64,000 nucleotides of DNA from an uncultured Candidatus Saccharibacteria bacterium (GTDB lineage Bacteria > Patescibacteriota > Minisyncoccia > Phycocordibacterales > UBA9973). Of the stretch, positions 2,569 through 19,560 are shown in pieces. The stretch lies in NCBI GenBank assembly GCA_964348725.1, contig CAYGDG010000003.1:30775-94774 (forward strand). Reading direction: 5' to 3'. The position numbers were made by a program, and so were the translations under genes. The notes under the pieces are model-generated. The model saw only the letters and a list, made by a program, of their open reading frames with translations. It was not told the origin of the DNA and made no database searches. Position 1 is the stretch's first letter. Every line of letters starts with the position of its first letter.

Positions 2569-3945
2569 TTATAATGCGATCTCCCAGAGTTTGAAATCTT
2601 TCTTATTAATGAAGAAGAGATATTTCTCAGCTTCGTCGAGAGCGAGCTTGATGCCGTCCGCATCCTCGCCTGCCAGCGTGTAGACATCCGCGATCACAGT
2701 GTATGTGCCGGTCTTTACATCTATCTTCCAGATGCTATCGGAAAAAGATATTTCATCCCGGTACCAGGCGTCCGGATATTCATCATTCAGTACGAACTTC
2801 GGCACGGCGCAATAGAGCGTCTCGGAGAGCTTGCCCCAGACACATTTCTCCGGTAATGTCTTGGCCGGCAGAACTTGCGTGTTTCCGGTGCCTGTATCAT
2901 ATAAGTACAGAGTAAGGTCCCTGTTTCCATAGGCTATGAGGCGTCCGGACGGGCTGGTGAGCGTGGTCAGACCGGGTATTCCACCTAATATCTTATTGAA
3001 ATCTTTCAGGTTCGGGTCTATGCCGTACATATAGCCTGGCACGTTCGCGGAAGGCTTGGTGGTAAGTGTTACCATCCGACTGTTCGGCCACTCAGAGAGC
3101 CACTCAGTGAAAGGAGAATCGAAGAGCTGGATCCTCTTTTCTCCGGCAAGTCCTGCAGAAATGCCCACGGCATTTGTACCGGAAGAGAAGATGTAGAACA
3201 TGCGCGAGGTGTCCCGAGATATGGTCATGTCAGAGATGTTTTCTGGTAAAAAGATTCCCTTCAGAGAAGTGTTTGCCGAATCTGCACCAAGAACTTCCTT
3301 TGGCAGGATACCCGCAAATGTCTCGATGGTCCGTCCGTCTGTTTTCAGATAGCGGAAAATCACTGAATCGCCGTGATTGCCAAAAAATGCTTCATGGATC
3401 TGCGGGATGATAGTGGTGGTGAATTTGCGCTCATCCAGCTTATCAGCAAATGCCTGATAGATATTGCCAGTCGCTCTCTCGGCGTAACGCAGAGCAGGAA
3501 CGAATTCCGTCGGCGGAGCGATAGGTTTTACCACAGCAGCTTGAGAAGCGGTACCTGCGGCATCGGTAGAGGCAGGTTCGATGACCGGAATGATCACCGG
3601 CAGTTCCTTGAATCTTTCTTTCTGGAAGATGATGTATCCGGCGATCGATAGGTCGGAAACTTTTCTCAACTTGGCTGCCGGAGCTTCGGTCGCAGGGGCA
3701 GGTTCAAAGCCGGAAATGTCCGTCGGTTCGGTCGCAGTAGGCAGTTCGTTGTTCGTACCGCCAAAAGGCCATATTTGAGAAAGGAAATTTGTTCCGGCCG
3801 TGCTTCCCACAGTACCGGTCTTGTCAGTGGTATTATAAAAATATAAAAAGCCGAAAGCTATAGCCGTGGCGGCGATGAGGATGATAATAAGAAGTTTTAG
3901 ATTTCGTGGTGACATAATTATTTTCCGTCGTATGACCAGTGCCAA
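2569..3945 (-). CDS. Membrane-anchored protein with C-terminal beta-propeller-like region (last gene of T4SS-like operon); likely true start at Met 3915
   Basis: 458 aa ORF; N-terminal TM (LLIIILIAATAIAFGFLYF), low-complexity linker, repetitive beta-strand-rich C-terminus; alternative ATG at 3915 removes overlap with upstream gene. Confidence 0.5.
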   Translation of the reverse strand: MALVIRRKIIMSPRNLKLLIIILIAATAIAFGFLYFYNTTDKTGTVGSTAGTNFLSQIWPFGGTNNELPTATEPTDISGFEPAPATEAPAAKLRKVSDLSIAGYIIFQKERFKELPVIIPVIEPASTDAAGTASQAAVVKPIAPPTEFVPALRYAERATGNIYQAFADKLDERKFTTTIIPQIHEAFFGNHGDSVIFRYLKTDGRTIETFAGILPKEVLGADSANTSLKGIFLPENISDMTISRDTSRMFYIFSSGTNAVGISAGLAGEKRIQLFDSPFTEWLSEWPNSRMVTLTTKPSANVPGYMYGIDPNLKDFNKILGGIPGLTTLTSPSGRLIAYGNRDLTLYLYDTGTGNTQVLPAKTLPEKCVWGKLSETLYCAVPKFVLNDEYPDAWYRDEISFSDSIWKIDVKTGTYTVIADVYTLAGEDADGIKLALDEAEKYLFFINKKDFKLWEIAL

Positions 3946-5162
3946 GGCTCTGAAGCCAAATTATACATCTTATAAGTGGCCGCGTTATTTTTCAGCCAGA
4001 CGAAACATTTATTGTCTTGCGCCCCGATGCTCTGGCCTTCACAGGTGAAGTCGATGGCGAGGCCCGCTTCGTGCCTGGAAGTGCCGGGGTATGCGGTAGG
4101 CGGATTGCATTTCGCGCTCTGGTTATATATGGCAGATTGCCCGCCGCAGTGCTGGGATCGCAAGGATTCCTGCGCTTGCTTTGATCGGTATGTTCCGCCG
4201 GCCAGCTTGATCTGCGGTGTTGTCGCCCATGCCGCATCTATCAATTTTTTCAGGTTGGCCGAAATGCTCTTGCATGCCCAGAAGGTGCCTCCTGAAGTGC
4301 TGATCTGTTCGAATCCTTGAGTGCATAGTCCGTATGCTCCGCTCGGCGGCGTGCCGCTCGAGCTGGACGTCATACCGTAAATTTCACGTTCGTCCCCTAT
4401 CGTGACTGACGCTTCCGGTAGTTTGCCTAGGCCCACGTCGAGCAGGTCCGAATTCAAGGTGTTGAGGATGGCGTATGCGCCGAGAGCCAAGATGAGTCCG
4501 AGAACGGCATTCGTTATCTTGCTCTTCCCGTCCGCTTTTTCAGACACCAGCTCGCTGGTCATGTATTCTATGCCGCCTACCACTATCATGATCATGGCAA
4601 GGGCCGCGCAAATGCCTATGATCACATTTATCATGATGTTGAGGTATGCCCCGAAGCCGGACGCTGTATCCACCACTCCGTCTTTGCCGACTTTTGGAAT
4701 TGGCGCCAGCAATGTATAGTCCGTCTCGGTGTCTGTCCGTGTCACGTCACCGGAGAGTATGGTCGGGTTCGCTAACCCCCCCACCTTCTGCGCTATAGTT
4801 CCTGTTTTATCCTCCACGACTACTGATACACTGTATGTTTTTCCGGAATCCAGAATGCTGCCGGTATTATATTCGGCATGATTACCCTGTATTTTCTTAA
4901 TTACCGACTGCCCGACCTGTTTGTTCGGTTCCCCTTCTTTTTTTTCATATAAAAATACGACCGCATCTGTGTTGTCCGCTGTTCCTTCGGTGTCTATGTT
5001 CACTACCCAAGTCCACTTCTGGGTGGAAAAATTCTGATTCTGAGCGCCCATGGAAAGATTCACTTTTGTCGTAGCTGCGTTCACGGAAGCGGTAAGCGCT
5101 CCGAAAGCGACCAATACGGCCAGAGAAAAAATAACTATTTTTTTGTTCTTAAAAAGTGACAT
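3918..5162 (-). CDS. Fusion protein: secreted N-domain + VirB2/TrbC-like 2-TM hairpin + C-terminal peptidase M15 (D-Ala-D-Ala carboxypeptidase-like cell-wall hydrolase)
   Basis: Signal peptide; hydrophobic hairpin YLNIMINVIIGICAALAMIMIVVGGIEYM-loop-TNAVLGLILALGAYAILNTL; C-terminal SRHEAGLAIDF and EPWHWSY motifs typical of LAS/M15 metallopeptidases. Confidence 0.6.
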   Translation of the reverse strand: MSLFKNKKIVIFSLAVLVAFGALTASVNAATTKVNLSMGAQNQNFSTQKWTWVVNIDTEGTADNTDAVVFLYEKKEGEPNKQVGQSVIKKIQGNHAEYNTGSILDSGKTYSVSVVVEDKTGTIAQKVGGLANPTILSGDVTRTDTETDYTLLAPIPKVGKDGVVDTASGFGAYLNIMINVIIGICAALAMIMIVVGGIEYMTSELVSEKADGKSKITNAVLGLILALGAYAILNTLNSDLLDVGLGKLPEASVTIGDEREIYGMTSSSSGTPPSGAYGLCTQGFEQISTSGGTFWACKSISANLKKLIDAAWATTPQIKLAGGTYRSKQAQESLRSQHCGGQSAIYNQSAKCNPPTAYPGTSRHEAGLAIDFTCEGQSIGAQDNKCFVWLKNNAATYKMYNLASEPWHWSYDGK

Positions 5163-6117
5163 CGATCTGTTTTTCGCGATTTAAAAATAATCTTTTGAGA
5201 TTTTTGACCGTGAGGCGTATGCGGGCACTGCCTTCGCTGCCTGATTCCGGCTTTATTCCTATCTCGTTCTTCACATCGGAAGAAATGGGAGCTCCGTTCA
5301 GATACCAGGACATCTGAAGGTCCGGAGATTCCAGATCCTTCGGCGAAAAGAAATATGGTTCGGCACTGATTATGGCTCCTCCTTCGGGTATGAAAAATCC
5401 GTTCCCGATGGCGCGTGGCAGATGTTGTCCGGAAATAGGATCTTTGGCATAAAAAGTTATATGTGGTTCGGAGGGGCGGACCGTAGTCGTGCCCGTACCG
5501 ATGCCATTGCCTGCGAGGTCAGATACGGTGACATTGATCTCATTCTCAGTTTCCAAATAGGTATTCTTGAAAGTGTATGAGCTCTTGCCAAAACCGGAAA
5601 AAGTGACTGATGTCTTGCCGTCCTGCTCCCAGCGATAAGCGAAGTTCTTGGCGCTGCCGTTCGCCGGTATTGCCACTATCTTGTATGAGCCTTCGGTGGG
5701 AACAAGCGCTTTGCCTTTATAGAAAGGCGGCACATATGAGTCTACTCCTTGCCAGAGCAGATCTATGGCGGCCGGGCTGATGGCGATCGTCTTCTCGATG
5801 AGAGAGCCGTCCGCCGCTTCTATCCGTGCTTGGAGCAGTGTGCGTGACCCTGCGGCTGGGGCGGTAAAGGAAAAACTTTTCTGCCCGAATGCCTCTATCA
5901 TTACCCGTCCGTCGAGCAGCCACGTGATACGCGCGCGATCAAGATCGGAAGCGTATGTGGAGAGTGCTGCGGACACCGATTCGTTCGGCCGCGGATATCT
6001 CGGAGTGAGCGACAAAGAAACATCGCCGCTCTGTATCTGAGCCAAAGCGGAGAGTATAGGCAATGCGAAAAAAGCGATTGCGAGGACCACGACCGACATT
6101 TGTAACTTGGCGTACAT
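5149..6117 (-). CDS. Secreted/anchored protein, three beta-sandwich-like repeats (possible VirB8-position protein)
   Basis: 322 aa; N-terminal hydrophobic segment VVVLAIAFFALPILSALA; position downstream of VirB4 as in Gram-positive T4SS operons. Confidence 0.4.
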   Translation of the reverse strand: MYAKLQMSVVVLAIAFFALPILSALAQIQSGDVSLSLTPRYPRPNESVSAALSTYASDLDRARITWLLDGRVMIEAFGQKSFSFTAPAAGSRTLLQARIEAADGSLIEKTIAISPAAIDLLWQGVDSYVPPFYKGKALVPTEGSYKIVAIPANGSAKNFAYRWEQDGKTSVTFSGFGKSSYTFKNTYLETENEINVTVSDLAGNGIGTGTTTVRPSEPHITFYAKDPISGQHLPRAIGNGFFIPEGGAIISAEPYFFSPKDLESPDLQMSWYLNGAPISSDVKNEIGIKPESGSEGSARIRLTVKNLKRLFLNREKQIDVTF

Positions 6118-6138
6118 CGGCTATATTATATCACGCTC

Positions 6139-7980
6139 TTACCCTCGAGGCACAGTCTGGGCATCCGCTAATTCCTGCTTGGCCTTCTTGATGGAAAGGA
6201 TCTGCGAGGGGTCAGAGGTGATTATCTGATCTTCAGTGTATGAGGAAATGACTTTGATGGCGACGTGTTTCAGGCCGGCAAAGAATATGCCCTCTCCCAC
6301 GCCGGATTCCAGCAGGAGGTATTTCTCTTCATCGGTCAGATTAAATGTCTTTTGCAGGATGTCGATAGTAGATGGAGACTGCTTGAGGAGTATCTGGATG
6401 CTGGAGTTTGTAACGATCGGCACGCCGTACGGACTCTTCATGAAGTCAGCCGCGTCCTGAGTGATGGTGGCCAGGCCGAGGAAGTATTTGCGTCCGCGCT
6501 TGGCGATGGAGTACAAGAATGACGCAGTATCTTCTGATTTCATCATCCACCACGCTTCGTCCACCACAAGTAATCTTTTCTTCAGATTTTTTCTGACGGC
6601 ATTCCAGATGTAATGCGTGACGATGTACATGGCGATCGGCTTCAATTCATCTTCCATGTCGCGCACGGAGAAGACGACGAATTTCTTGTTGATATCGACG
6701 TTCGAGGGTTTGTTCAAGAATGTAGACCACGAGCCGCGCGTATATTTCACAAGACGCTGCACGACGGAGTCCGAACCTTCCATGCCGGAGAGCACCATCT
6801 CGAAGTCGGAAAGGAGTGGCGGTTCGATATTGGAAAAGTCAGATTCGGGCGTGATGTCTTTTATCGCATACGTTTCTGAAATGGCGCGGTCCACCATGGA
6901 GTCCTCTTCCGGCGTGAGCCCGCCGAGCATGAGACGGAACAGACCCACGAGGTTGATGATGTTCGAGCGGAGCACATCCGCTGCTGTTTCGTCTTCACGC
7001 GGGATCGGCAGGTCAAACGGATTAATGTGGTGTTCGGATGAGAGCGAAATATTGAAATAGCGTCCGCCGACGGCTTCAGCCAGGTATTCGTATTCTCGTT
7101 CCGGGTCGATGACGATGACGTCAGTGTCGAACATGAGCGAGCGTAGGATCTCGAGCTTCGTGGCATAGGATTTTCCGGAGCCGGATTTAGCGAAGGTGAC
7201 AGAGTTGTAGTTCTCCAGAGAGAAGCGGTCAAAAATAACAAGCGAAGAATTGTGCCGATTCACCCCATAGAGGATTCCTTTGTCGGACGTAAGGTCGAAA
7301 GAAACAAATGGAAAGATCGAAGAGAGTGGAGCAGAATTTAATTTCTGATGCACCGCAAGGACGTCGCTGCCGATCGGGATGACGCTCTTGAAACCTTCGT
7401 CCTGCTGGAATAGGGCCGGCTTTATGTATATGAGCTTTGATTCGAGCATGGATTTTATCTCATTCTCTATCTTGAAGAGCTCGAGCTCATTGTCGGCATA
7501 TACGGTGATGTACAGGCCCACATCGAACATTTTTTCCTGCGCTTGCATGAGGCTGTCGCGCAGGTTTTCGAGATCCTGATATGCCGTATCGAGCATCGGA
7601 TCGCGCACCATGCCCTTCCCTTCGCGTACGGCTATCTGGCTCTGCACCTCGGCTACTTTTTTCTGGAACTGGCGCAAGGCAAGCGAAGTGTCTATCGGGT
7701 GTATGAAGATCGAAACATCGAATATCTTATCGAGATTTATGATGGGCGAGAACCAATTGTCTGTCAAAAACCTCGGATACGAAATGATGAAGAATGTACG
7801 GGCTATCTTATCGCCGAGGTTCAAGGACTTTGGTTCGATCTTCAGAGCTGAAGGAGCGATGACATCCTGGAGCTCGAGCGTGGCGGATTCGTAGATTTCT
7901 TCCGGAAGCACGGCCAAGACGGACGCTCGCGCGTCGCTCTCTTTCGGTCTTCTTCCTAAAATTTTATCTAAAAGTGACAT
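6139..7980 (-). CDS. virB4: VirB4/TrbE/PrgJ-like T4SS ATPase, C-terminal ATPase part
   Basis: 613 aa; Walker A FAKSGSGKSYAT, Walker B RLLVVDEAWWMM (DEAW typical of VirB4), ATITQ motif. Confidence 0.8.
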   Translation of the reverse strand: MSLLDKILGRRPKESDARASVLAVLPEEIYESATLELQDVIAPSALKIEPKSLNLGDKIARTFFIISYPRFLTDNWFSPIINLDKIFDVSIFIHPIDTSLALRQFQKKVAEVQSQIAVREGKGMVRDPMLDTAYQDLENLRDSLMQAQEKMFDVGLYITVYADNELELFKIENEIKSMLESKLIYIKPALFQQDEGFKSVIPIGSDVLAVHQKLNSAPLSSIFPFVSFDLTSDKGILYGVNRHNSSLVIFDRFSLENYNSVTFAKSGSGKSYATKLEILRSLMFDTDVIVIDPEREYEYLAEAVGGRYFNISLSSEHHINPFDLPIPREDETAADVLRSNIINLVGLFRLMLGGLTPEEDSMVDRAISETYAIKDITPESDFSNIEPPLLSDFEMVLSGMEGSDSVVQRLVKYTRGSWSTFLNKPSNVDINKKFVVFSVRDMEDELKPIAMYIVTHYIWNAVRKNLKKRLLVVDEAWWMMKSEDTASFLYSIAKRGRKYFLGLATITQDAADFMKSPYGVPIVTNSSIQILLKQSPSTIDILQKTFNLTDEEKYLLLESGVGEGIFFAGLKHVAIKVISSYTEDQIITSDPSQILSIKKAKQELADAQTVPRG

Positions 7981-7986
7981 ATATTA

Positions 7987-8631
7987 TTACGCGTTCGTTA
8001 GGTCTATTTTACCTTCTATTTCTCCCGGATTGAAGACCTTGTAGAAAACTTCCACGATCTCTTCTGTGCCGAGCTCGACGGACTTGATGCCGGCGCTGGC
8101 CAGTCCCTGAGAGATGACCGCTACTCGCTGCTCGAGCTGCGAACGCTTCTCTTCGAAATCCGCGGCCGCGGCCGCTTTGACTTCTTCGCGGTTCTTGCGG
8201 GAAAATATTCCTTTCAGCATGCCGGTGTCGGCGGAAAATTCTTTCGGCGTATACGGCACGACCACGAAGAATGTCTTGGTCATGATATTTACCGTCTCGG
8301 TAAAATTCTTGATGAATTCCATATACTCGCGCGTCTGTACTTTCAGGAGTGGTTCATTCTGCACCTTCATCCTGTTCTCGAGAAGCAGCAAGTATGGCCG
8401 GATGTCGAGCTTCCTCGACTGCACGACTATCTGCACGGAGAAATCGAGCGTGTTCAGGAAGTTCTGGAACTGCATGATGGTGGCCTTCTGTTCATCTTCA
8501 GACTTGAGCGAAAGGTTCACTGAATTCGCGAGGACGACAGAGCGCAGCCCGCCGTCTTTCAAAACGACCACGCCGTCGCGGACTTCTTTGATAGGTACGA
8601 AATCTTGAGTTGCTCTCGCTTGTATGGCCAT
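7987..8631 (-). CDS. VirB4-like N-terminal domain protein (split from ATPase part by in-frame TAA TAA)
   Basis: 214 aa; DFVPIKEVRDGVVVLKDGGLRSVVL... resembles N-terminal domain of PrgJ/TcpF-type VirB4; same reading frame as 6139..7980, separated by TAA TAA TAT. Confidence 0.6.
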   Translation of the reverse strand: MAIQARATQDFVPIKEVRDGVVVLKDGGLRSVVLANSVNLSLKSEDEQKATIMQFQNFLNTLDFSVQIVVQSRKLDIRPYLLLLENRMKVQNEPLLKVQTREYMEFIKNFTETVNIMTKTFFVVVPYTPKEFSADTGMLKGIFSRKNREEVKAAAAADFEEKRSQLEQRVAVISQGLASAGIKSVELGTEEIVEVFYKVFNPGEIEGKIDLTNA

Positions 8632-8635
8632 AGTA

Positions 8636-9061
8636 TTATTCTACCTCATTTTGCGAATCTTTTTTCGTGTCCAGCACGTCCAAGCTCCAAGCCAGATCAC
8701 GCAATCGGCTCGCGCCCAGCTTTGGCGCGGGTATGGCACTTGCAAGAGAGGCCGCTTCTTTGGCTTTCTCACCTTTTTCTTTCCGTCTTCTCTTCCAGAT
8801 GTAGAGCTTGTCCGTGGCGGCGTAGCGGATGCTGGCCTCGAGCATATTTATGAATGGCTTATTGTTCGGACGGTAAAAAGTGAGCGCGAGCGAAAAGCCG
8901 GCAATAATGAGCATAGGAATCAATCCCCAGAAAAAGCCGAGCAGTTTATACAGGATGAAGCAAAGCCCTCCGCCGCCGGCGAGATAGACGAATTGGCGGA
9001 AAGTGAACGGGCCGAAGATCTTATCTTCGATGTCGATGAATTGTGGCACTTTGAATTGCAT
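8636..9061 (-). CDS. PrgI/VirB3-like small 2-TM protein
   Basis: 141 aa; two TM helices (LAGGGGLCFILYKLLGFFWGLIPMLIIAGFSLALTFY) then basic tail; sits immediately upstream of VirB4 as prgI-prgJ. Confidence 0.5.
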   Translation of the reverse strand: MQFKVPQFIDIEDKIFGPFTFRQFVYLAGGGGLCFILYKLLGFFWGLIPMLIIAGFSLALTFYRPNNKPFINMLEASIRYAATDKLYIWKRRRKEKGEKAKEAASLASAIPAPKLGASRLRDLAWSLDVLDTKKDSQNEVE

Positions 9062-9064
9062 ATT

Positions 9065-9835
9065 TTATTGCGGTATTTCTCGATACGGGTCTATTTGTGG
9101 TGCCGGGACGGGAGCTACGGCAGGTGCCTGCGGGCTGACAGAAACCGGCGTCTTGGAAATATTGCTCAAGGAATACTCTGTCTTTACCGTCGGCAGTTGG
9201 AAAGAGCCGGAGAGCTTCGAAATCGGTATGGAAGAGACCGAAGAAAGAATTTTTTCATTTTGTTTTGGCGTGCTTATTGTCTCGGGATGTTCCACTTTTG
9301 TCAGCATGTCTTCACGTTTTTCCATCGGAGCCGCTGCAGATATTTGAGGGGGGAGAACGGGAGATGGGGTAATATTGATGCCGACGGATTTCAATACGTC
9401 TGTCTCAGCTGTTTTCAGATCGGGTCTTGGTATTGTCGCCGCCGCCGGGCGGACAGATGGAATCGGCTCTTCTCTCACCTGAATTTTCTTCTTTTCCGTG
9501 AGCTTCATCAGTTCTTGGCGGATCTTCTTGAAAACGAGCTCGTTCATTTCATTTACCAGCTCGTCAGCCTTGGCACGCGGAATTTTCATTCGAGCCGAAA
9601 GTTCCGCCGGAAAATTTTCCGGTGACAGCAAGCCGCACAGCAATAATTCAGTTTCCACGCCGAGGTCTTCGATCTGTTCGAAGCTGAAGCCCTTTTTCTC
9701 ACGCATCGAGAGGACGATGCCGCGCCAATCTACCGCTTGTATCGCGTCGCGTGTAGCCTCTGGTAAAGCGGCTTTCGCCTTATCTATTTTTATCTGTAGA
9801 AGGTCAAGTTCTGCCATCTTTCTATTATATAACAA
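9065..9835 (-). CDS. Hypothetical protein, paralog A (shared ~90-aa N-domain with next gene, Pro/Ser-rich C-terminus)
   Basis: 256 aa; N-domain LPEATRDAIQAVDWRGIVL...ELVNEMNELVFKKIRQEL aligns with N-domain of 9825..10319 product. Confidence 0.45.
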   Translation of the reverse strand: MLYNRKMAELDLLQIKIDKAKAALPEATRDAIQAVDWRGIVLSMREKKGFSFEQIEDLGVETELLLCGLLSPENFPAELSARMKIPRAKADELVNEMNELVFKKIRQELMKLTEKKKIQVREEPIPSVRPAAATIPRPDLKTAETDVLKSVGINITPSPVLPPQISAAAPMEKREDMLTKVEHPETISTPKQNEKILSSVSSIPISKLSGSFQLPTVKTEYSLSNISKTPVSVSPQAPAVAPVPAPQIDPYREIPQ

Positions 9836-10319
9836 ATTTACTTTTTATGTCTTCTATTTTTGAAGGCGGCACGATGGCTCGTATGGTGTCCGTGAAATCT
9901 TTCGAGACCACGTGTTTTTTCATGAGTACGCCATAGTCTCCGCCGGAGAGGATGAAATCGAGCGATTCGCGCCATGTCCACTCCTTGGCGACTGAATTAT
10001 TTTTTATCGTCTCTCGAATTTTATTCGCGATAGGGACGAATACTTGCGCAAGAAGTTCCTGTGCCACTATCTCCGCTTGGTTTCTCGGGATCCCCACTTC
10101 GTCTTCTATATTCATGGCAATATCCTGCGGATATGCGAGGCCGGTCATTACCAGCACCGTTTCTATTGCCAAGTTATCAATATCTTGTTCCAGTAGACCG
10201 TGAGAATTTCCGACGGCAGTTATTTGTGCGAGCCAGTCAAAAGAATGTACCGCGTCCAAAGACTCCTTTGGTAAGGTCTTGAGCTGTTCGTTGATTTTAT
10301 TTTTTAATTCTTCAGTCAT
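9825..10319 (-). CDS. Hypothetical protein, paralog B
   Basis: 164 aa; LPKESLDAVHSFDWLAQITAV...EIVAQELLAQVFVPIANKIRETI homologous to paralog A; 11-nt overlap with it. Confidence 0.45.
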   Translation of the reverse strand: MTEELKNKINEQLKTLPKESLDAVHSFDWLAQITAVGNSHGLLEQDIDNLAIETVLVMTGLAYPQDIAMNIEDEVGIPRNQAEIVAQELLAQVFVPIANKIRETIKNNSVAKEWTWRESLDFILSGGDYGVLMKKHVVSKDFTDTIRAIVPPSKIEDIKSKFVI

Positions 10320-10324
10320 ATTTT

Positions 10325-12709
10325 TTAGTGATCAGGCGCATGTGCTCCTGCGGGTGCCGGAGCGTGGGCTTCGGCCGGTGCGGCGTGCCCATGATCCCCG
10401 TGGTCATCATCTCCCCCGTGATCTCCATGACCATCCTTCGGCGGCTTCATACCCATCCTGATGTTGTGTGACGCGTTGCGGTCTGAGCTTGCGCTGCCGC
10501 CAGTCATGACACTGATAGTTTGGTGAAGTCCACTGCCCACTCTGTCTGCCTCTTTATCTCTTCTATTGTAGTTCTTGAGCTCGATCGCATGTTCGGCGTG
10601 GTGGACAGACTCTTCCATGTCTTTCAGTGTGTTATCTCCTGACTTATATTCTTTAGCTGAGTAATTTTTGTCGACAGTAATGATATTTCCATCTATATCC
10701 TGATATTCATCTTTGAACGCCTGACCAGTCTTCAGTGCATCTTTCTGTTTCTTGAATACTTTGAGCTGGTCTCCGTATACCGCCAATGCGTCTCTCTTCT
10801 TAGCTTTATCCTCGTCAGTCAGATTCGGCATCAGGTTTGCATCCTTCAGGTTCTGTCGAGCTGCCTCGAGCTGCTTGTCGATTTTCGCCACTTCCGTATT
10901 AGTAGTCATCTGCAAGGCACGTAGATCGGTCTGCAGCTTGTTCAATTCCTGCTTCTCTTTTTCATTATCGCCGACTTCCAAATCCTTTGCTCTCTTCAGG
11001 CGCTTTGCTTCCTGGCGTTCTTTCATGCCGGCAAAGCCTCCTTGCGCCGGCTTGCCTACGCCTTTTACTAGGCCGGTGCCGCGGACATCAAATGAAGCAG
11101 CCCCGAGCGCTCCGCCTGCACCCTGTAATCCTCGTATTGCCCAACCATAGTATTTATTGCTGGACAGATCTTTCAGCTTGCCGCTGTCCGCGGCCATCTG
11201 GCCGAGTCTTCCGATGGTGGAGCGCCCCGCGAGAGCATATGCGCCGAGCGCGCCGCCGACGGCGAGTCCTGCCACGCCGCTGCCGATTTTTGACATTGCC
11301 GCGCCGATCTCACCAGACATTTTCTGGGCTATTTCTTTTGCCTTGGTAAGAAGGATAAAGATGATGGCGAATGGGATGATAGTCTTCATGAATTTATCCA
11401 TGTAATCAGTCGAATTGCCGATGTCGTATGTGATGAGGCTGAAGAAATCTCCGAACAGGATGATGACATACAGGAAGAAGATGAAGACAGGCGCGAGGAA
11501 TGCGTTCTTGAGTAGATTGCTCAGCCACTCTTCCCAGCCGAAACCCGGAATGTGCACGTGAGGCAAAGTTTTGGAAGCGAAAGCGATTGGCGCGAATATC
11601 ATGGAAAGCCACAGGGCGACCACTCGGCCGACAAAGAGCATGGCGACCGAGAAGAATATATATGCCATGAATGCCATGATGGCGGAAGACAGCAAAGTGA
11701 CGAAAATGAACAGCCCGATATTGCCGGCATAGTTATCCTGGGTGATGACGTTCTGAGGGTTGAAAGGTTTGGTGAGTCCGAGGGAGATGGATTTTTCACC
11801 CGCCGAGTTAGCCGGGAGCGGATTTCCATTGCTGTCGACGGCTTTGATGTTGTTGTAAAAAACTTTCGCCAATATGTTCGAGCCGTCTATCAGTACCTGG
11901 GTGAAGAACAGGCTGAAGTTTATGAGCAGCGCCACGATGATGATGGAGCTGATGGCTTTCTTTGCCCCGTGCCCAAGGTTCAGAATGGTCTGTATCGCTA
12001 TATATAGAAGAGATACGATAAAGAATATGTTGGCGATGTCGCGCACTGCTCCCCATGCCTTGCGGATGAATTCGCTCGAATATGAACTGCTGTTCGTGGA
12101 ATAATAGACAAAGAAGTCGAGTATTTTGGCGGCCAGTCTGGCGAATGCGGCCAAAGGTTCCCAGAATATGGTGTAAACTATGGCAGCCAAACAGCCCTTT
12201 ACTCCTTCAATACTGAGCTTACACTCAAAGCTGTAACCGTCCGACGGAATATTCGATGGCATGCTGGTGCCTTCTGCGGCAGCTTGGAATCCTGTATCCG
12301 TCTGTTGCGACCCTGATCCGTCGCCGTTAAAATTTACTGCATTGGATATCGTATTCGAGGGATTAGTGCTCGCGAGGATTCTGTATTTTTTGCTCGCTTG
12401 AAAATTGTATTCTACGAGTAAGCTAACTGTCTGTTCAGTGCCGGCATCGCTCACCTGCGATGTAAAATTGGTATGCTTTACGGAATTGACGAGCCCGGCT
12501 TCATCATATTGGAGAAGATTCAGATCAAACGCGTCTCCCGCTTTTGGACCCAAAATTTTTATTTTGAAAGTTCCGGAATTCGGCGTGATGTCAGCAGGTT
12601 GTATCGGCTGTATTTCCAGAGCGGTGACCGCGTGTGCTGTCCCGATCGGCGCTATGAAAATGCCGAGCGCGATCACCGATATCAAAATGTATGAAAAAAG
12701 CCTTTTCAT
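10325..12709 (-). CDS. VirB6/TrbL-like polytopic membrane protein with N-terminal secreted domain, C-terminal coiled coil and His/Asp-rich tail
   Basis: 794 aa; signal peptide, ~7 TM helices, Gly-rich GSGVAGLAVGGALGAYALAGRSTIGRLG segment typical of TrbL/VirB6, tail HGDHGGDDDHGDHGHAAPAEAHAPAPAGAHAPDH. Confidence 0.5.
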   Translation of the reverse strand: MKRLFSYILISVIALGIFIAPIGTAHAVTALEIQPIQPADITPNSGTFKIKILGPKAGDAFDLNLLQYDEAGLVNSVKHTNFTSQVSDAGTEQTVSLLVEYNFQASKKYRILASTNPSNTISNAVNFNGDGSGSQQTDTGFQAAAEGTSMPSNIPSDGYSFECKLSIEGVKGCLAAIVYTIFWEPLAAFARLAAKILDFFVYYSTNSSSYSSEFIRKAWGAVRDIANIFFIVSLLYIAIQTILNLGHGAKKAISSIIIVALLINFSLFFTQVLIDGSNILAKVFYNNIKAVDSNGNPLPANSAGEKSISLGLTKPFNPQNVITQDNYAGNIGLFIFVTLLSSAIMAFMAYIFFSVAMLFVGRVVALWLSMIFAPIAFASKTLPHVHIPGFGWEEWLSNLLKNAFLAPVFIFFLYVIILFGDFFSLITYDIGNSTDYMDKFMKTIIPFAIIFILLTKAKEIAQKMSGEIGAAMSKIGSGVAGLAVGGALGAYALAGRSTIGRLGQMAADSGKLKDLSSNKYYGWAIRGLQGAGGALGAASFDVRGTGLVKGVGKPAQGGFAGMKERQEAKRLKRAKDLEVGDNEKEKQELNKLQTDLRALQMTTNTEVAKIDKQLEAARQNLKDANLMPNLTDEDKAKKRDALAVYGDQLKVFKKQKDALKTGQAFKDEYQDIDGNIITVDKNYSAKEYKSGDNTLKDMEESVHHAEHAIELKNYNRRDKEADRVGSGLHQTISVMTGGSASSDRNASHNIRMGMKPPKDGHGDHGGDDDHGDHGHAAPAEAHAPAPAGAHAPDH

Positions 12710-12739
12710 TTATTATGTTGTAATTTTAGCACAAAAAAA

Positions 12740-14149
12740 CTATCTTTTGGTGAAATAATACTCGTAACCGTATGCGTTGCGTGTGGTGGAAGTCATCGTC
12801 TGAATGCTTATGATCCTGCTGTAATAATACTCATATACAGTAAGGCGGCCATTCAAGAATGCCAATTGATATGCCGCCACATCCGGCTCGGAGACGCGTA
12901 TTTCTCTGCCCGCGGTATTTATATAGCCGAAGCTGCGCGCATAAAAGTGCGCAAGTGTCCAAGCAAAAGTCTGCAGGTCTTGCCGCCCGTCCCAACCATA
13001 CGCGCGCGCCAAGGCTTCGTTCCCAGCTATTTGTCTCTGAAATACAGTCTCGATTCCTTCGTGGTAGCGGACTACTGCATCTATCGGCGGAATAACATTT
13101 TGTCCCAAGACGAACGGGCCGTTGGGATTCAAATTTCCATTACTTCCGTTATTCCCATTGTTTCCATTGTTCTGATTATTCCCATTTCCTCCCGACGTAG
13201 TATTTCCGCCGCCGTTATTGTTCACTCCCCCGCCTCCGCCATCATTTACTCCGCCGCCATCATTATTTACCGGAGTATCTCCACCCCCACCGATACCTCC
13301 GCCGACATATGTGCCTCCGCCGCCTGTGCCGTTGCAATTTTCATCGTCATCATCACCGCATGGAGCCTGGTACGGCTGTCCGCCGGGCGTTCCTCCGGGA
13401 TTCGTATTTCCCGGTGAAGCGGTAGTGAAGGACAGAACACCTCCGTAATACGTAGTGCCTCCGCTTGCCGCCGCCGCGCGGAATTCATATTGCGTGCCGG
13501 AAGTGAGACTATTGATGAGCGATACCATGTCTCCCGCGCCCGAGCTATGGCTTACGATTGAAGTTTTTTTCCAAGGCTCGCTGATATCGATTAGTAGCCC
13601 CCCAGCAGTCTCCGTCACTGGATTTATTTTTCTGTATTCGAACCACGTCGTCGAGACAGAAGTGGAATTGTAAGAACCGTTCACATACGAAGAGTCAGCG
13701 TCCACCACCAGGGCATCTTCGGTGATGACGGAAGTAGCGAAACAAGAGGCGCATGGAGTGGTGACGAATTCTTTCACATTGCCATAACGTATCTCGGTCC
13801 TACTGGAAGCGATGGCGCAGTAATAATATTTGGTGTTCGGCTCGAGCCCGGTGATTTTTTTAGAGAAGGAGGTGGTGCCGCCAGATCCGATATTCGTCTC
13901 TTTGGTATATTTCATGTCCGAACCGAAAACGTCATTACAGAACACGGGTGGGATATCGAGGGTCGCATAACGGAAATATCCGGAGCTCGGAAATCCTTCC
14001 GGATTAGCGGACCCGGAGAGAATGACCGAATTTTCCGTAATGGATGCAGCATTTCCGGTCAGGACGGAATTTATCGCCAGCGCCGAAAAGGGCATCCAGA
14101 GCAGGGCTGACATCGCTATTATATTTTTTATATTTTTTTGCATCTTCAA
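12740..14149 (-). CDS. Secreted protein: two FN3-like repeats, Gly/Asn-rich low-complexity linker, C-terminal GWDG-motif domain
   Basis: 469 aa; signal peptide; linker GGGGTYVGGGIGGGGDTPVNNDGGGVNDGGGGGVNNNGGGNTTSGGNGNNQNNGNNGNNGSNGN; C-terminal ALARAYGWDGRQDLQTFA. Confidence 0.5.
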   Translation of the reverse strand: MKMQKNIKNIIAMSALLWMPFSALAINSVLTGNAASITENSVILSGSANPEGFPSSGYFRYATLDIPPVFCNDVFGSDMKYTKETNIGSGGTTSFSKKITGLEPNTKYYYCAIASSRTEIRYGNVKEFVTTPCASCFATSVITEDALVVDADSSYVNGSYNSTSVSTTWFEYRKINPVTETAGGLLIDISEPWKKTSIVSHSSGAGDMVSLINSLTSGTQYEFRAAAASGGTTYYGGVLSFTTASPGNTNPGGTPGGQPYQAPCGDDDDENCNGTGGGGTYVGGGIGGGGDTPVNNDGGGVNDGGGGGVNNNGGGNTTSGGNGNNQNNGNNGNNGSNGNLNPNGPFVLGQNVIPPIDAVVRYHEGIETVFQRQIAGNEALARAYGWDGRQDLQTFAWTLAHFYARSFGYINTAGREIRVSEPDVAAYQLAFLNGRLTVYEYYYSRIISIQTMTSTTRNAYGYEYYFTKR

Positions 14150-16711
14150 TTAATATATTTGCAGCGTCCTTTCGAACACGCCGATCGTCTGCGAAGTCTT
14201 GTCTTGCTGCAGGTTAAAGAGATCGCTGACTCGCACATAAGTCGGGCCGCGGGGATTGCCTAAGCTGCCGCATTCTGCCGTATTTGCCAGGCCGAACTGC
14301 TCGTAGAAAGAGCAGAAGCTGGTGATGCTTGAAAGGTTTGCCAATGTCGGGATGGTGAAGACGGTAAATGAACTGGCTGAGAGGAATCCGGGGCCGCCTC
14401 CATTCGCTATGGCCGGCATGTTGTTCGTAATGCCCGCATTAAGCGGATCAGGAATTGCCGCTCCTGCAGCCAAGGTGTTGTAATCATACAATATGTCAAA
14501 AGGATAAGCTGGACGCTTGGTGTCGAGTATCTGCCATGGAGTATTACCAAGGTCATTTTCGCAGCCGGCCGCACCTTTCAGTAGGTCCTTGTAAACGTAA
14601 TTGGTTTTGTCGATTATTTCTCTCCACATGATATCTGCCGCGGCAATGTCATTGCCGGAGACCATGTCTATAGAGAGGCGGCCGAAAGCGCTGGTCCATG
14701 GCTGGAGCGCATTTTCATATGCGTCCTGTGAGAGTGAGCCGGAAGCGAGCTGGCTGTTGAGCGCATCAATTTTGTTCTTGATATTGATAAGTCGCTGCAC
14801 AATGCTTTTTTTGACTGCAATATTTGTCTTGTTGTCTTCGATTATCTTTTTATATCCCTCGGCTCGTAGGAATTCCGCTTCCGCTTCGCTGGCCACTCCC
14901 GGCTGGATGTCGCGGATGAATGTACTATTTACTGCAGTCACATATCGGTCAAATATCTTATCCAATTTTTCAACAACGCTTGAATAAGGAAGCAAGTTGT
15001 CGTCTCGTACTACAGCCAGGCCGGTAATGAGGCCGACGTATGCGGCGTAGAGTTTTTTAGAGTCATTCTCTCCGTCACCTATGCCGAGGGCGACACCTAT
15101 TTGATTTATCGGTCCACCAAATGCACCGGCCAGCTGGTGTACAGTATCCGGTGGAATAGTATCCACGTCCGGTATCTTGCTTTCGGCGGTTTCCAGAGCG
15201 ATCTGCGCTTCTTCTTCCCAATCCGGATGCGGACCAGGGATACAGTAGTCGAGCTGGTAGACTGTTTTAATGAGGTTCGGCAATGCCGCATTCTGCTGTT
15301 CAAGCTTGTCTATATATGTACGCTGCGTGTCTATCACCGCTTGGGAAAAGTCCGTACGGATATTGAAATCCGGATTATCCCGGAGCCAGGAACTTGCATT
15401 CAGCGCGGAGTCGGCAAAATCTTTTTCAGTTTGCCATTTGTCCGAGTCGCTTATGCCGAGCGAATCAAGCGAGAGTCTGTTGTCATTTTCAGTCAATGCG
15501 GCAAGGCCTTCGTTGGTCAGCTGAGCGGTGAATTTTGCGAGTAAGGCGTCAAGCACTGCGGCGATGGCGTCATTCAGATCTTGTGCTTCGAGCAAGGCGT
15601 CCTTTGGATAACCCACGGCATCTGTGGCCAAGCTGGCCACGATGGAGCCTGGTGTTACACTCTCCCATCTTTTACAGAGGCGAGGCGAGCCGGTCGGATA
15701 CATGTTCGAGCTACCGGCGAGAGCCGCATCGTGTTCTTCTTTGGTGACTCCTATCGGATCCGCGCAACGAGAATCTGGCAGCCATCCGCCCGCTGATTGC
15801 AGGCCTTTGTCGATCCATTGTGCGGTAGACATCTCTGTGCCGGCCAACCTGCCACTTAGTTCATTTGAAGCCAAGAGATTGAAACCAAGGGGATTGTTTG
15901 CTGGTATGATGGTCATCGCATTCCACGCTCCCCAGCCCCCTTGCGAAAAATCTTCACTGAAAGCAGCAGCGGTGTATTGCGGCGTAGTGTCGCGGATCAG
16001 CTTGTCTAAAGAAAACTGCGCGTTCTGGGCGAAGTGATTGTTGAAAGCATTGGCTTGTGCATAGAGGAATGCGCGGCCGAAAGGAAACTTATTCGCATCA
16101 TTTATCTCGAGCCCGAAGCCGAGGATCTCTTCTTTTGCGATATCACGGAAATATTTAGTGGATTGGACAAAGAATGACTGACCATTATTTCCGTTCCTGA
16201 TCCATTCTATGGTCGCCAAAGTTATTTTTTGCAGCAGCAATTTTATGACCATGCGGCCGATGGCTTCGGTGCAGGTAATTTTCTTCTTGATGGACTCGGT
16301 ATTTGTGTCGATATTGTCTATAGTTTGTCCTTGTTTTATTACTGCCGTATAGGTGGCCTCATCATGCACTCCGATATCGTCTACTGTGGCGGAACTCTCG
16401 GCAGATTTGCCGGAAAAACTGCCGTCTTCTAATCGAGGACCGATCTCTTTTTTGGCTTTCCTGAACAAGCCCTTTATCCCGCTGCCTATGGCCTTCTGGC
16501 ATTCCGGAAGCTTGGCGATAGTGGGCAAAAGACCTTTTACGTAGCCGTTGATATTTCCGCCGGAACTGGATCCGGTGGCACCGGAAGTGCCGGTCGAATT
16601 GCTACCGAAGACGCCGAATGTCTGAGCACTTACCAAGACAGGCGAAAGCAATATGCCCGCAAGCGTGAATATGACGACTATATTTTTAAAAATTATATTT
16701 GCTTTGCTCAT
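14150..16711 (-). CDS. Large secreted protein of unknown function
   Basis: 853 aa; N-terminal signal peptide IVVIFTLAGILLSPVLVSAQ; stop/start adjacent to neighbours. Confidence 0.5.
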   Translation of the reverse strand: MSKANIIFKNIVVIFTLAGILLSPVLVSAQTFGVFGSNSTGTSGATGSSSGGNINGYVKGLLPTIAKLPECQKAIGSGIKGLFRKAKKEIGPRLEDGSFSGKSAESSATVDDIGVHDEATYTAVIKQGQTIDNIDTNTESIKKKITCTEAIGRMVIKLLLQKITLATIEWIRNGNNGQSFFVQSTKYFRDIAKEEILGFGLEINDANKFPFGRAFLYAQANAFNNHFAQNAQFSLDKLIRDTTPQYTAAAFSEDFSQGGWGAWNAMTIIPANNPLGFNLLASNELSGRLAGTEMSTAQWIDKGLQSAGGWLPDSRCADPIGVTKEEHDAALAGSSNMYPTGSPRLCKRWESVTPGSIVASLATDAVGYPKDALLEAQDLNDAIAAVLDALLAKFTAQLTNEGLAALTENDNRLSLDSLGISDSDKWQTEKDFADSALNASSWLRDNPDFNIRTDFSQAVIDTQRTYIDKLEQQNAALPNLIKTVYQLDYCIPGPHPDWEEEAQIALETAESKIPDVDTIPPDTVHQLAGAFGGPINQIGVALGIGDGENDSKKLYAAYVGLITGLAVVRDDNLLPYSSVVEKLDKIFDRYVTAVNSTFIRDIQPGVASEAEAEFLRAEGYKKIIEDNKTNIAVKKSIVQRLINIKNKIDALNSQLASGSLSQDAYENALQPWTSAFGRLSIDMVSGNDIAAADIMWREIIDKTNYVYKDLLKGAAGCENDLGNTPWQILDTKRPAYPFDILYDYNTLAAGAAIPDPLNAGITNNMPAIANGGGPGFLSASSFTVFTIPTLANLSSITSFCSFYEQFGLANTAECGSLGNPRGPTYVRVSDLFNLQQDKTSQTIGVFERTLQIY

Positions 16712-16723
16712 TTTGCTTTATTT

Positions 16724-17632
16724 TTACTCGGTTATTATACCATTATTTTCCAATATTGCCTGAAGCTCGCGTGCCGCTTTGATGAGGTCATCACTGTATT
16801 TTTGGTATTGCGAGAGTCCGGAGAGGCCGATGATCGGGTCCGTCACCATTTTTTCCATGTTCCGCACCGCGACGCCGGTATTATTCGCGTCATTCATGAT
16901 CTTCAGATGATGCGATACGAGGCTGGATGGCACAGACATCTCGGACATCTTGGAAGCAAATTCTTGGTATGCGTCCGCGATCCCGCTCAAGCGGCTTTCA
17001 GAATTTGTTTCGCCTGTAGAAGAATAAGTAGTAATGTCACCGCTCACCGCTTCGAGCTCGTCGCCGATACCGGCCTCGGCATACTTTTCAAAAAGACCTT
17101 GCAATGTATCATAGTATTTAGCTTGTGCTTGTACCCCGGTCTCTTCCGAGAGTTTGACGTTATTTGAAGTGTAGCGATCAAGGAGCGAAGGATCGGCTAT
17201 TTTCTCGCCGATCGAACCATAGAGATTGTTTATGGTCTTTTCATCGAACTGCCCATTCTGCTTCAAAGCTACAAAGGAAGTGAAAAATTCCTGAGCGAAT
17301 TTTTCCGTCTCTGTACCTTCCATACCAGCCGTGTCTCCGGCCGGCAGAGCTTCTCGCCTTTTCCTGATATATGAGCTGTCTGGTTCGCCGTCGAATGTGA
17401 CGGCCTTGTTCACGTCTGTTCCCCACAGCCCTTCTTCCCAATCCATCACGCCGTCGCCGTCAGTATCTTTCTGCCAAAGATCATTGAGCGTCACTTTTTC
17501 CGCCCGCAATTTCTTTTCCGATATGAATCGGCTGGCGGTGGAGAAACGGGAAATAAGGAAAACGCCGGCAATGACAGCGATGCCTATTCCCATCCATATC
17601 GTGAATTTTTTGCTTGGCAGATATTTATTCAT
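16724..17632 (-). CDS. N-terminally anchored membrane protein (first gene of operon), contains DxDxDG Ca-binding-like motif
   Basis: 302 aa; TM WMGIGIAVIAGVFLISRF; DTDGDGVMDWEEGLWGTD. Confidence 0.5.
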   Translation of the reverse strand: MNKYLPSKKFTIWMGIGIAVIAGVFLISRFSTASRFISEKKLRAEKVTLNDLWQKDTDGDGVMDWEEGLWGTDVNKAVTFDGEPDSSYIRKRREALPAGDTAGMEGTETEKFAQEFFTSFVALKQNGQFDEKTINNLYGSIGEKIADPSLLDRYTSNNVKLSEETGVQAQAKYYDTLQGLFEKYAEAGIGDELEAVSGDITTYSSTGETNSESRLSGIADAYQEFASKMSEMSVPSSLVSHHLKIMNDANNTGVAVRNMEKMVTDPIIGLSGLSQYQKYSDDLIKAARELQAILENNGIITE

Positions 17633-17682: not shown

Positions 17683-18063
17683 ATGAGTAAAATAACTAAA
17701 GAAATCAGGTTATTGGCCTGCTCTGCTCTGCTTTTGGGAGGTGTTTTCCTCTTCTCCTACTCTTCTGTTTTCGGTGCTGCGGGCGCGATTGATTTTGGCG
17801 GAAATATGATAACGAGCGTGGTGGAATGCACCTGCAGCACCGGTTCTCAGATCTCTGTTACCGGTTATGGACGCAAAAATTCAAAACATACCGGTACATA
17901 TTTATACACTCCAGGGACGATAGTCATCAAAGGAAAGGTGGAGCCCGGCAAAAAAATTATCGGCCAATACACCTCTGGAGGAGGCCAATGTTTGATAACA
18001 GGAACCCCATGTGAAAAATTGCCTATAACTAAAGGCACGTTTAAGATCATCAGCACTAATTAA
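17683..18063 (+). CDS. Small secreted Cys-containing protein, divergent from T4SS-like operon
   Basis: 126 aa from internal ATG of ORF 17614..18063; N-terminal hydrophobic segment LLACSALLLGGVFLFSYSSVFGAAGA; 6 Cys. Confidence 0.45.
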   Translation: MSKITKEIRLLACSALLLGGVFLFSYSSVFGAAGAIDFGGNMITSVVECTCSTGSQISVTGYGRKNSKHTGTYLYTPGTIVIKGKVEPGKKIIGQYTSGGGQCLITGTPCEKLPITKGTFKIISTN

Positions 18064-18883: not shown

Positions 18884-19526
18884 ACGTAAGCCAATTTTCT
18901 ATTTCTGCTTTTACTTCATCCGTATTTTGAAAATAATCCGGAAATGGGCTCTTTTCCAGGATCTTTTTCTCCGAGCGTTCCAGATTCAAATAATCCACAT
19001 AGCTTGAAAAATTAAATTTTTTCAAGTATTCTTTCGCGCCGGAAATATTTTTTAAGCCGGCTTCCTTCCATCGCGGCTCTATTATTTTGAGTGGATTGAG
19101 ATGAATATAAGCGTATAAGTATTTTAAATAATTGTCGTTTTCGACATGCTGCGATTTTGTTTTTCCCTGAAAAAGAGATCCGCTCCGGTCATATTTTTTG
19201 TTGAAATATGTGGAATAACTTGTGAGTAATTTTAAAAGAAACTGGCTTGCATCTTTCTCATTTTTGATCCGTACAAGAATATGAAAATGATTCGGCATTA
19301 GGCAATACGCCCCGATATCTACCAAACTCTCCCCTCTTTCCACTGTCCAGGCCCGGCCTGGACTTGTCTCAGCGTCAGAATATTTCGGCGATTCTTTGCC
19401 GTTGCATAAATAAAGTAGCTTATGAAATCGCGCATAATCTTTTTCATCCTTGAAAATCGTCATTTTATTTGTCCCACGATTATACAGATGATAATACTCC
19501 CCTTGGGCAAAAGGTATTTTCCTCAT
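18867..19526 (-). CDS. REP-associated tyrosine transposase / IS200-like Y1 HUH transposase (RAYT1)
   Basis: 219 aa; GEYYHLYNRG, HUH motif CLMPNHFHILV, catalytic Tyr region LLTSYSTYFNKKYDRSGSLFQG; flanked by REP-A. Confidence 0.75.
   Translation of the reverse strand: MRKIPFAQGEYYHLYNRGTNKMTIFKDEKDYARFHKLLYLCNGKESPKYSDAETSPGRAWTVERGESLVDIGAYCLMPNHFHILVRIKNEKDASQFLLKLLTSYSTYFNKKYDRSGSLFQGKTKSQHVENDNYLKYLYAYIHLNPLKIIEPRWKEAGLKNISGAKEYLKKFNFSSYVDYLNLERSEKKILEKSPFPDYFQNTDEVKAEIENWLTYDEKI
19345..19363. repeat. REP-A palindrome copy 2, in-frame inside RAYT1
   Basis: GTCCAGGCCCGGCCTGGAC; encodes SPGRAWT within the transposase. Confidence 0.8.
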
Positions 19527-19539
19527 CCTCCTATTATAC

Positions 19540-19560
19540 TGTCCAGGCCCGGCCTGGACA
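19540..19560. repeat. REP-A palindrome copy 3
   Basis: TGTCCAGGCCCGGCCTGGACA, 14 bp upstream of RAYT1 start. Confidence 0.8.

Follow-up and report, generated by a model that had tools for sequence, protein, structure and literature searches.

Twelve tightly packed, co-directional open reading frames (ORFs) on the minus strand, at positions 2569-17632 of a 64-kb stretch of contig CAYGDG010000003.1 (the window, meaning the whole stretch analysed), very probably encode the chromosomal, origin-proximal type IV secretion system (T4SS) typical of Patescibacteria, in the form that it takes in Paceibacteria (Candidatus Nomurabacteria). With the same high confidence, the system derives from the MPF-FATA conjugation machinery of single-membrane bacteria and is no longer conjugative. 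Numbering the genes o01 to o12 in operon order, the cytoplasmic motor is a VirB4 encoded by two genes, and the membrane parts encoded alongside it are a PrgI/VirB3 protein, the VirB6-like o04 and one hairpin protein of VirB2 type (o11). Taken as a whole, that is, identity together with the working proposed below, we regard this as a probable explanation of the locus. Systems of this kind were published between 2023 and 2025, and the operon does not represent a new one; the original prediction, which arrived at it independently, agrees with that literature. Three of its details may nevertheless be new, namely the conservation of VirB4 far beyond that of neighbouring housekeeping genes, the invariant single hairpin of o11, flanked by domains that differ on both sides among close relatives, and several conserved partner families without annotation.

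The VirB4 motor and its membrane partners

The ATPase body of VirB4 (6139-7980, on the minus strand like all genes of the operon; 613 aa) carries a Walker A motif, AKSGSGKS, at residues 264-271 and a Walker B motif, DEAW, at residue 474. It exceeded the cutoff of the NCBIfam model for CD1110-family VirB4 (E 9.5e-112; 374.6 bits, cutoff 325), spanning profile positions 183-733 of 752, and also matched P-loop_TraG (8.3e-25) and VirB4_plasma (9.9e-78). The best solved structure was the C-terminal domain of Thermoanaerobacter VirB4 (4ag5; E 2.9e-39), and TrwK was matched at 5.3e-7. A partial match to CedB (1.3e-8 across about 70 residues) is generic P-loop similarity.

The gene between those of PrgI and the VirB4 body (7987-8631, minus strand) encodes a 214-aa protein that matched NCBIfam TrsD (2.6e-6), VirB4_plasma at profile positions 102-233 (3e-12), CD1110 at positions 2-122 and TIGR00929 at positions 3-179, which amounts to the initial 120-180 positions in four VirB4 models. 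The two ORFs jointly cover CD1110 positions 2-122 and 183-733 of 752. Since the 214-aa protein matches both TrsD and the N-terminal positions of the VirB4 models, VirB4 is, as judged from these profiles, encoded by two genes, one for a TrsD-like N-terminal domain and one for the ATPase body. The original prediction, made from the letters alone, had recognised the ATPase body correctly from its KSGSGKS and DEAW motifs; it overlooked the N-terminal domain and left the TrsD-like gene unassigned.

TrsD and VirB4 lie in a single reading frame, their junction reading TAA TAA TAT and then ATG. For comparison, related loci were taken from GTDB species-representative genomes and picked by VirB4 similarity; the presence counts given here and below refer to loci with enough flank. 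TrsD was always a separate gene (77/77 related loci), and the split is therefore not a sequence error. Recoding or a frameshift at the in-frame junction was considered and rejected, given the double TAA and the split in all 77 relatives.

Among the best 80 of the 590 matches confirmed in GTDB species-representative genomes, VirB4 was 77-94% identical to its relatives, whose titles read Nomurabacteria, Paceibacterota, Paceibacteria, Minisyncoccia, Parcubacteria and, in many cases, "uncultured Candidatus Saccharibacteria". More than 120 cluster representatives shared 88-94% identity with it (no tree was built), and those with a name were assigned to Paceibacterota, Nomurabacteria, Minisyncoccia or the Patescibacteria group, with one labelled Burkholderiales. 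Among the genes measured, GC content at third codon positions peaked in TrsD (0.68) and VirB4 (0.65).

A PrgI/VirB3-like protein had been expected just upstream of VirB4, and the 141-aa product of 8636-9061 (minus strand), with two transmembrane segments, indeed matched PF12666 (PrgI) above the gathering score (E 8.3e-10; 39.5 bits, cutoff 27). It was present in 72/72 related loci, with a median identity of 61%.

The 794-aa protein o04 (10325-12709, minus strand) occurs in every related locus with enough flank. It has a signal peptide; its Ig/FN3-like ectodomain is encoded by nt 12290-12616, its helical membrane core by nt 11180-12232, and its C-terminal tail, which is charged, His-rich and coiled-coil, by nt 10328-11179. 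Sequence profiles from Pfam, NCBIfam and PDB gave no match for it, including PF04610, PrgH and solved VirB6 proteins, and neither did a Pfam scan of 29 family members. The predicted fold of the core, on the other hand, best matched TrwI/VirB6 of plasmid R388, at a sequence identity to VirB6 of 8-14% and with designed helical repeats scoring nearly as high as VirB6. The protein was thus modelled as a polytopic helical core with a VirB6 fold inside a T4SS operon, and we call it VirB6-like with moderate confidence, on the strength of the fold comparison, the sequence-level tests having failed. The earlier description as VirB6/TrbL-like is supported at the level of fold and finds no counterpart among sequence profiles.

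A pilin hairpin fused to a wall peptidase

The 414-aa protein o11 (3918-5162, minus strand) has a signal peptide and a variable N-terminal ectodomain; residues 145-245 (nt 4428-4730) make up a VirB2-like hairpin, and residues 298-413 (nt 3924-4271) a VanY/M15 D,D-peptidase. Both the hairpin (T4SS_pilin, PF18895, 1.6e-6) and the enzyme (VanY, PF02557, 2.1e-12) exceeded the gathering score, and the hairpin protein also matched the NCBIfam Mycoplasma ICE pilin-like family (1.4e-5; ICE, integrated conjugative element). The peptidase motifs SxHxxGxAxD (residues 362-371) and ExxH (405-408), which comprise zinc-binding and catalytic residues, are intact, so that the fusion of a VirB2-like hairpin to an M15 peptidase, as originally proposed, is well founded. 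The predicted topology is ectodomain, transmembrane segment, short basic loop, transmembrane segment and enzyme, with both flanking domains extracellular, as in VirB2. A PrgK- or VirB1-like role had been suggested for the peptidase. In agreement with this, a predicted peptidoglycan-cleaving domain is encoded within the operon; being a peptidase and not a lytic transglycosylase, it counts as a VirB1 analogue, not as a homologue.

The hairpin is the only pilin module in the window, and exactly one such module was found in 70/73 loci, within ORFs of 144-784 aa. The protein itself is present in 69/70 related loci. When o11 was aligned across relatives, the hairpin was found in all 72, the VanY region in 11 and the N-terminal domain in none. 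Even among the nearest relatives (VirB4 identity of at least 88%) the C-terminal domain was NlpC/P60 in three cases, M15_4 in one and YkuD in one, the remainder being unrecognised, and in more distant relatives SLT_2 and Amidase_5 stood beside the hairpin. In the papers searched we found no mention of a pilin-enzyme fusion or of domain swapping.

A bolder interpretation, which we put forward as a speculation with the chances against it, is that the Paceibacteria hairpin serves as a carrier module on which the ectodomains at both ends are exchanged like cassettes, and which, if it polymerises, would yield an enzyme-decorated tube. If this were true, the wall-cutting enzymes of the tube would fit the peptidoglycan chemistry of the host, and the structure would act as a conduit that drills its own passage, its enzyme head helping to set the host range.

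Three relatives, L001 (12871-14616 and 16024-17868), L058 and L060, have two pilin-fusion genes each, and in L058 a single ORF contains two hairpins. These observations suggest occasional duplication of the pilin carrier module.

Conservation, known systems and possible mode of action

The same gene order and position were found in 44/44 related Paceibacteria loci with full flanks on both sides: uvrD-ksgA-o01-o02-(o03)-o04-(o05)-o06-PrgI-TrsD-VirB4-o10-o11-o12, followed by jag-yidC-rnpA, beyond which dnaA and dnaN lie in the nearest relative, L001. The synteny in related candidate phyla radiation (CPR) genomes that had been proposed as a check is thereby established. Seven genes, encoding TrsD, PrgI, the VirB6-like protein, VirB4, o10, the pilin-enzyme fusion and o12, occur in all loci or all but one. 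Together with the secreted o02 family and the o05/o06 paralogues they provide a clean component list for the Paceibacteria form of the system.

In 41 paired genomes the median identities were 86.9% for VirB4, 71.6% for TrsD and 60.6% for PrgI, compared with 58.4% for YidC, 56.8% for KsgA and 53.0% for Jag, and the surface proteins showed 28-45% identity. VirB4 was more conserved than YidC in 41/41 genomes; its identity is somewhat inflated by the selection of loci on VirB4 similarity, but the gap to the housekeeping genes is still large. A highly conserved motor combined with surface parts that evolve quickly and swap cassettes is the picture to be expected of a host-specific interface, and the contrast indicates which proteins to examine for host range.

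At 0.44-0.52, the operon has the GC content of pnp, rny, comM and xerD. A search for direct repeats found none on either side of the operon, and so no sign of the flanking att sites that had been named as a mark of an ICE. Domains of relaxases, VirD4 or VirB11 were found neither in the operon nor in the ten largest other ORFs, the only others scanned. Outside the operon, Walker A motifs in the window occur in ComM and in a 248-aa ORF (41876-42622), which was not profile-scanned. Given the conserved synteny, the ordinary GC content and the lack of relaxase, coupling protein, VirB11 and flanking repeats in the window, the view that the operon is a fixed chromosomal apparatus and not an ICE is strongly supported, in line with the earlier suggestion of a chromosomal core apparatus in a CPR genome. 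Its companion statement that no integrase is present holds for the operon; the window does contain a probable XerC/D-like tyrosine recombinase (39845-40813, minus strand), recognised by eye from its first 40 residues, and an integrase with att borders was not found.

In a survey of 3,035 Patescibacteria genomes, Quinonero-Coronel et al. 2025 (PMC12102498) described a monophyletic VirB4 clade nested in MPF-FATA, with TrsD as the most abundant partner, with PrgI/VirB3, VirB6 and VirB2-like PF18895 pilins near virB4, and with almost no relaxases; in Paceibacteria, virB4 was close to dnaA, dnaN, rnpA, ksgA and rpmH. The operon described here resembles these systems in its VirB4, which is 77-94% identical to that of Paceibacteria- and Nomurabacteria-labelled genomes (a clade placement made without a tree), in having a separate TrsD, PrgI/VirB3, a VirB6-like protein and a PF18895 pilin, in the wall hydrolases directly downstream of VirB4, in the lack of a relaxase or coupling protein nearby, and in its location beside dnaA, rpmH, rnpA and ksgA. 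It differs from them in having, instead of small free-standing pilins in an array, a single pilin to which an N-terminal ectodomain and an M15 peptidase are fused, and named counterparts in Patescibacteria T4SSs are lacking for o01, o02, o10, o12 and the o05/o06 pair. Recent reviews rank the patescibacterial T4SSs with the most intriguing newcomers to the T4SS superfamily, and one from 2025 considers them a new T4SS subgroup (PMC12857230).

In Southlakia epibionticum, Wang et al. 2023 (PMC10633639) described a cluster beside dnaA, SEML1_0006-0019, that is largely essential for growth on the host in this, the one species tested, with the order VirB6-like protein, NTF2-like protein, large protein, PrgI, a gene in the TrsD position, VirB4, M15 peptidase and lysozyme/CHAP protein. 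The core order VirB6...PrgI-TrsD-VirB4-hydrolase seen here equals that of SEML1_0013 through SEML1_0006, whereas no NTF2/VirB8-like protein was recognised in the operon.

The conjugation systems of the prgI-prgJ and pGO1 type share with the operon a VirB4 above the curated CD1110 cutoff, a PrgI directly upstream of VirB4 and a peptidoglycan hydrolase among the operon genes, and the separate TrsD-type N-terminal domain is found in pGO1 as well. Unlike these systems, the operon lacks a relaxase, oriT, VirD4/PcfC, a PrgB-like surface adhesin and element borders, is fixed beside the origin, and includes a VirB2-like hairpin, said to be absent there. For the Mycoplasma ICE, the NCBIfam models of both the pilin-like family (Mbov_0395) and VirB4 (Mbov_0397) match here, with scores far under the equivalog cutoffs, and the Mycoplasma genes ride a mobile ICE. 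Among single-membrane bacteria, a pilin-like hairpin beside VirB4 is therefore not confined to Patescibacteria. With R388 Trw and Agrobacterium VirB (MPF-T) the operon has in common the TrwI/VirB6 core fold of o04 and proteins of the VirB2, VirB3 and VirB4 types, but no VirB7, VirB9, VirB10, VirB11, VirB5 or VirD4 was recognised in it. A VirB4-type ATPase without a VirD4 partner recalls the importers Helicobacter ComB and archaeal Ced/CedB; no ComB or CedA counterpart was tested or found.

As for the working of the apparatus, the model for R388 and Agrobacterium would have VirB4 and its separate N-terminal domain dock on PrgI/VirB3 and the VirB6-like platform, VirB4 extract pilin hairpins from the membrane, and the hairpins assemble on the VirB6 platform into a wall-crossing tube or stalk. 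The attached o11 enzyme may then open the peptidoglycan of the cell's own wall and possibly that of the host, and the fast-evolving secreted or anchored proteins o01, o02, o03, o10 and o12 would build the outer, host-contacting part.

Regarding the substrate, we tentatively favour the uptake of host cytoplasmic material, e.g. nucleic acids, while holding it at somewhat under an even chance, for the sequence itself gives neither substrate nor direction. Our preference is based on several considerations. The machine has no encoded coupling protein and the organisms cannot make nucleotides; other VirB4 systems free of a coupling protein include importers (ComB, Ced); comEC is dispensable in Saccharibacteria and the T4SS essential (PMC10633639; PMC12857230); and, in a cultivated relative, host-reaching tubular structures and host-RNA uptake have been described in a preprint (bioRxiv 10.64898/2026.06.21.733656).

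Several points weigh against this picture of a transporting tube. A pilin with folded end domains of about 115 and about 170 residues may be unable to polymerise, and the hairpin could be only a membrane anchor that positions the enzyme at the machine. No VirB8-like protein was recognised in the operon, and the profiles of o01, o10 and o12 matched no VirB8-like solved structure. The sequence carries no pointer to a substrate. Moreover, a coupling protein may lie outside the window, which would favour export, and homologues are common, 5,713 having been counted elsewhere in most Patescibacteria genomes (PMC12102498).

Effector export is the alternative that survives best, and we consider it possible, albeit clearly less probable than uptake. 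Toxins or wall enzymes would be delivered into or onto the host, by means of such a distant coupling protein or by a two-step Sec route as in Bordetella Ptl. At least seven of the twelve products have signal peptides or anchors and evolve fast, and close relatives exchange the wall-active domain of o11 in the manner of effector cassettes; export was also raised as a possibility by Wang et al. 2023 (PMC10633639) and in a 2024 PNAS perspective. However, no coupling protein was found in the 64 kb by domain scan of the operon and the ten largest other ORFs and by the Walker A check, no cytoplasmic protein of the operon stands out as an effector candidate by a recognisable secretion signal, and in S. 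epibionticum the distant type IV coupling protein is not essential, in contrast to the T4SS (PMC12102498).

An organelle for adhesion or wall remodelling only, i.e. a filament or scaffold for host attachment without transport, appears improbable. The homologues of VirB2, VirB3, VirB4 and VirB6 found here correspond to the subunits that assemble the pilus at the inner membrane in the R388 model, which is reportedly that of Mace et al. 2022, and the Ig-like, FN3-like, TSP3 and peptidoglycan-binding domains on the partner proteins suggest binding. On the other hand, type IV pili already provide these bacteria with adhesion and motility (PMC12857230), and the extreme conservation of the ATPase, together with the essentiality in Saccharibacteria, suggests a wider role. 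An ICE or its decayed remnant, finally, is rejected and refuted as far as sequence analysis reaches: the recognisable parts do all come from conjugation families (CD1110 VirB4, PrgI, TrsD and the Mycoplasma ICE pilin-like family), and an IS200-like transposase and palindromic repeats lie 1.2 kb upstream, but position and order are identical in all 44 full-flank loci of species-representative genomes, GC content is ordinary, no flanking repeats, operon integrase or, among the ORFs scanned, relaxase or coupling protein were found, and the insert with the palindromic repeats is peculiar to this genome and entirely outside the operon.

Partner proteins, operon layout and surroundings

The first operon gene, o01 (16724-17632, minus strand, 302 aa), encodes a protein with a hydrophobic anchor (residues 10-28), an acidic calcium-binding-type motif, DTDGDGxxDWEE, and a C-terminal ectodomain. 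It is fast-evolving (37/50 related loci, median identity 29%), a TSP3_bac repeat was recognised in 6/29 family members, and its profile gave no match to solved structures. The secreted 853-aa protein o02 (14150-16711, minus strand) belongs to an unannotated family of 4351 representatives at 50% clustering, in which several cysteines are conserved. Its residues 150-420 are conserved and modelled with low confidence, and residues 420-853 form a confidently modelled helical domain for which no significant structural neighbour was found. The variable accessory protein o03 (12740-14149, minus strand, 469 aa) is secreted and has FN3-like repeats, with matches under the gathering score to Pur_ac_phosph_N (FN3-like; 4.3e-5) and fn3 (0.0048), a Gly/Asn/Asp low-complexity linker at residues ~236-330 (GGGGVNNNGGGN...NGNNGNNGSNGN) and a C-terminal domain. 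It occurs in 10/55 related loci, and its C-terminal domain in few relatives.

Between o04 and PrgI lie the tandem paralogues o05 (9825-10319, minus strand, 164 aa) and o06 (9065-9835, minus strand, 256 aa; BLASTP E 5e-13). Both are predicted to be cytoplasmic, o05 having no transmembrane segment and o06 combining an o05-type N-terminal domain with a Pro/Ser-rich tail. They were present in 20/66 and 42/68 related loci, respectively, many relatives having one copy only. Neither matched Pfam or PDB, and a profile-profile comparison of the pair with o01 was negative.

Downstream of VirB4, o10 (5149-6117, minus strand, 322 aa; anchor at residues 7-25) is always found 3' of virB4 (75/75 related loci, median identity 36%). 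It appears to carry Ig-like domains, its sole and weak match being to the BiPBP_C Ig-like domain (1.7e-6; 28.2 bits, cutoff 26.8), and no PDB sequence match was obtained. The last gene, o12 (2569-3945, minus strand), is 458 aa long by ORF; the family consensus favours the ATG at 3915, the likely true start. Its product, anchored at residues 18-36, is present in 65/65 related loci and showed weak matches to TolB (E 0.042) and PD40, with PG_binding_1 in 3/29 family members; the ectodomain is possibly a cell-wall-associated TolB-like beta-propeller. Several of these conserved partner families are without annotation and perhaps new.

The intergenic distances in operon order are 12, 0, 30, 5, -11, 3, 4, 6, 21, -14 and -28 nt, in agreement with the earlier description of twelve co-directional ORFs separated by 0-30 nt or overlapping, and the two biggest overlaps (-14 and -28) vanish if the next in-frame ATG is taken as the start. 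The operon ends at a strong bidirectional intrinsic terminator (2519-2560; hairpin A7-CTCCC-CACA-GGGAG-T7, with a stem of 19 pairs) shared with the convergent jag gene on the plus strand. About 2 kb from the operon lies the 5' part of dnaA (1-415, minus strand), which starts at nt 415 and runs past the left edge of the window; its translation reads MDTKQLWKNCLSEIELS...LNPRYRFDSFIVG. Matches to the DnaA box are located at 436-444 and 485-493, between the dnaA start and rpmH, so that the placement of the operon end at the jag terminator beside dnaA and the origin is confirmed. Divergent from dnaA, the genes rpmH-rnpA-yidD-yidC-jag occupy 547-2527 on the plus strand (rpmH 547-681, rnpA 688-1050, yidC 1300-2049).

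The conserved upstream neighbour of the operon is ksgA/rsmA (18056-18883, minus strand), the run uvrD-ksgA-o01 being shared by about 30 loci. The spacer between ksgA and o01 is 423 nt here (from 17633 onward), whereas the two genes abut in relatives. It contains a divergent, Cys-rich ORF (17683-18063), absent from the protein collection. A small secreted protein had been predicted at this place; the ORF has no homologue in 80 related loci and may not be a gene. Some 12 nt upstream of the o01 ATG there is a TATAAT box, which would imply a very short leader.

Upstream of o01, four exact copies of a 19-nt palindrome, GTCCAGGCCCGGCCTGGAC, are found at 18835, 19345, 19541 and 20785, where none would be expected by chance. 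They surround an IS200-like Y1 transposase-like ORF (18867-19526; Pfam PF01797), a lipoprotein-like ORF (19649-20299) and a direct repeat of 110 nt (20170-20279 and 20633-20742), with one copy of the palindrome within the transposase ORF and one within the 5' end of the ksgA ORF. The ORFs of this insert (18835-20803) are absent from all 80 related loci, in which no more than about 2 kb separates ksgA and uvrD, and the segment looks like a REP/RAYT-type insert. A possible second Y1 IS200-like ORF (46743-47405, plus strand) was recognised by eye, its N-terminus PLITGEYYHIYNRG resembling that of ORF 18867-19526; no copy of the palindrome is nearby.

A second run of minus-strand genes (23152-28794) encodes proteins of 760, 450, 270 and 313 aa and may be another envelope or host-interface cluster; the first of these proteins gave no Pfam match, the second has a YkuD L,D-transpeptidase domain and the third a signal peptide. 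The window also encodes a Fic-domain protein (30471-31421, minus strand), ComM/YifB (48734-50281, plus strand) and PNPase (43088-45202, plus strand), the last of which, along with VirB4, a 2026 preprint discusses in relation to an RNA-feeding lifestyle of the phylum Patescibacteria.

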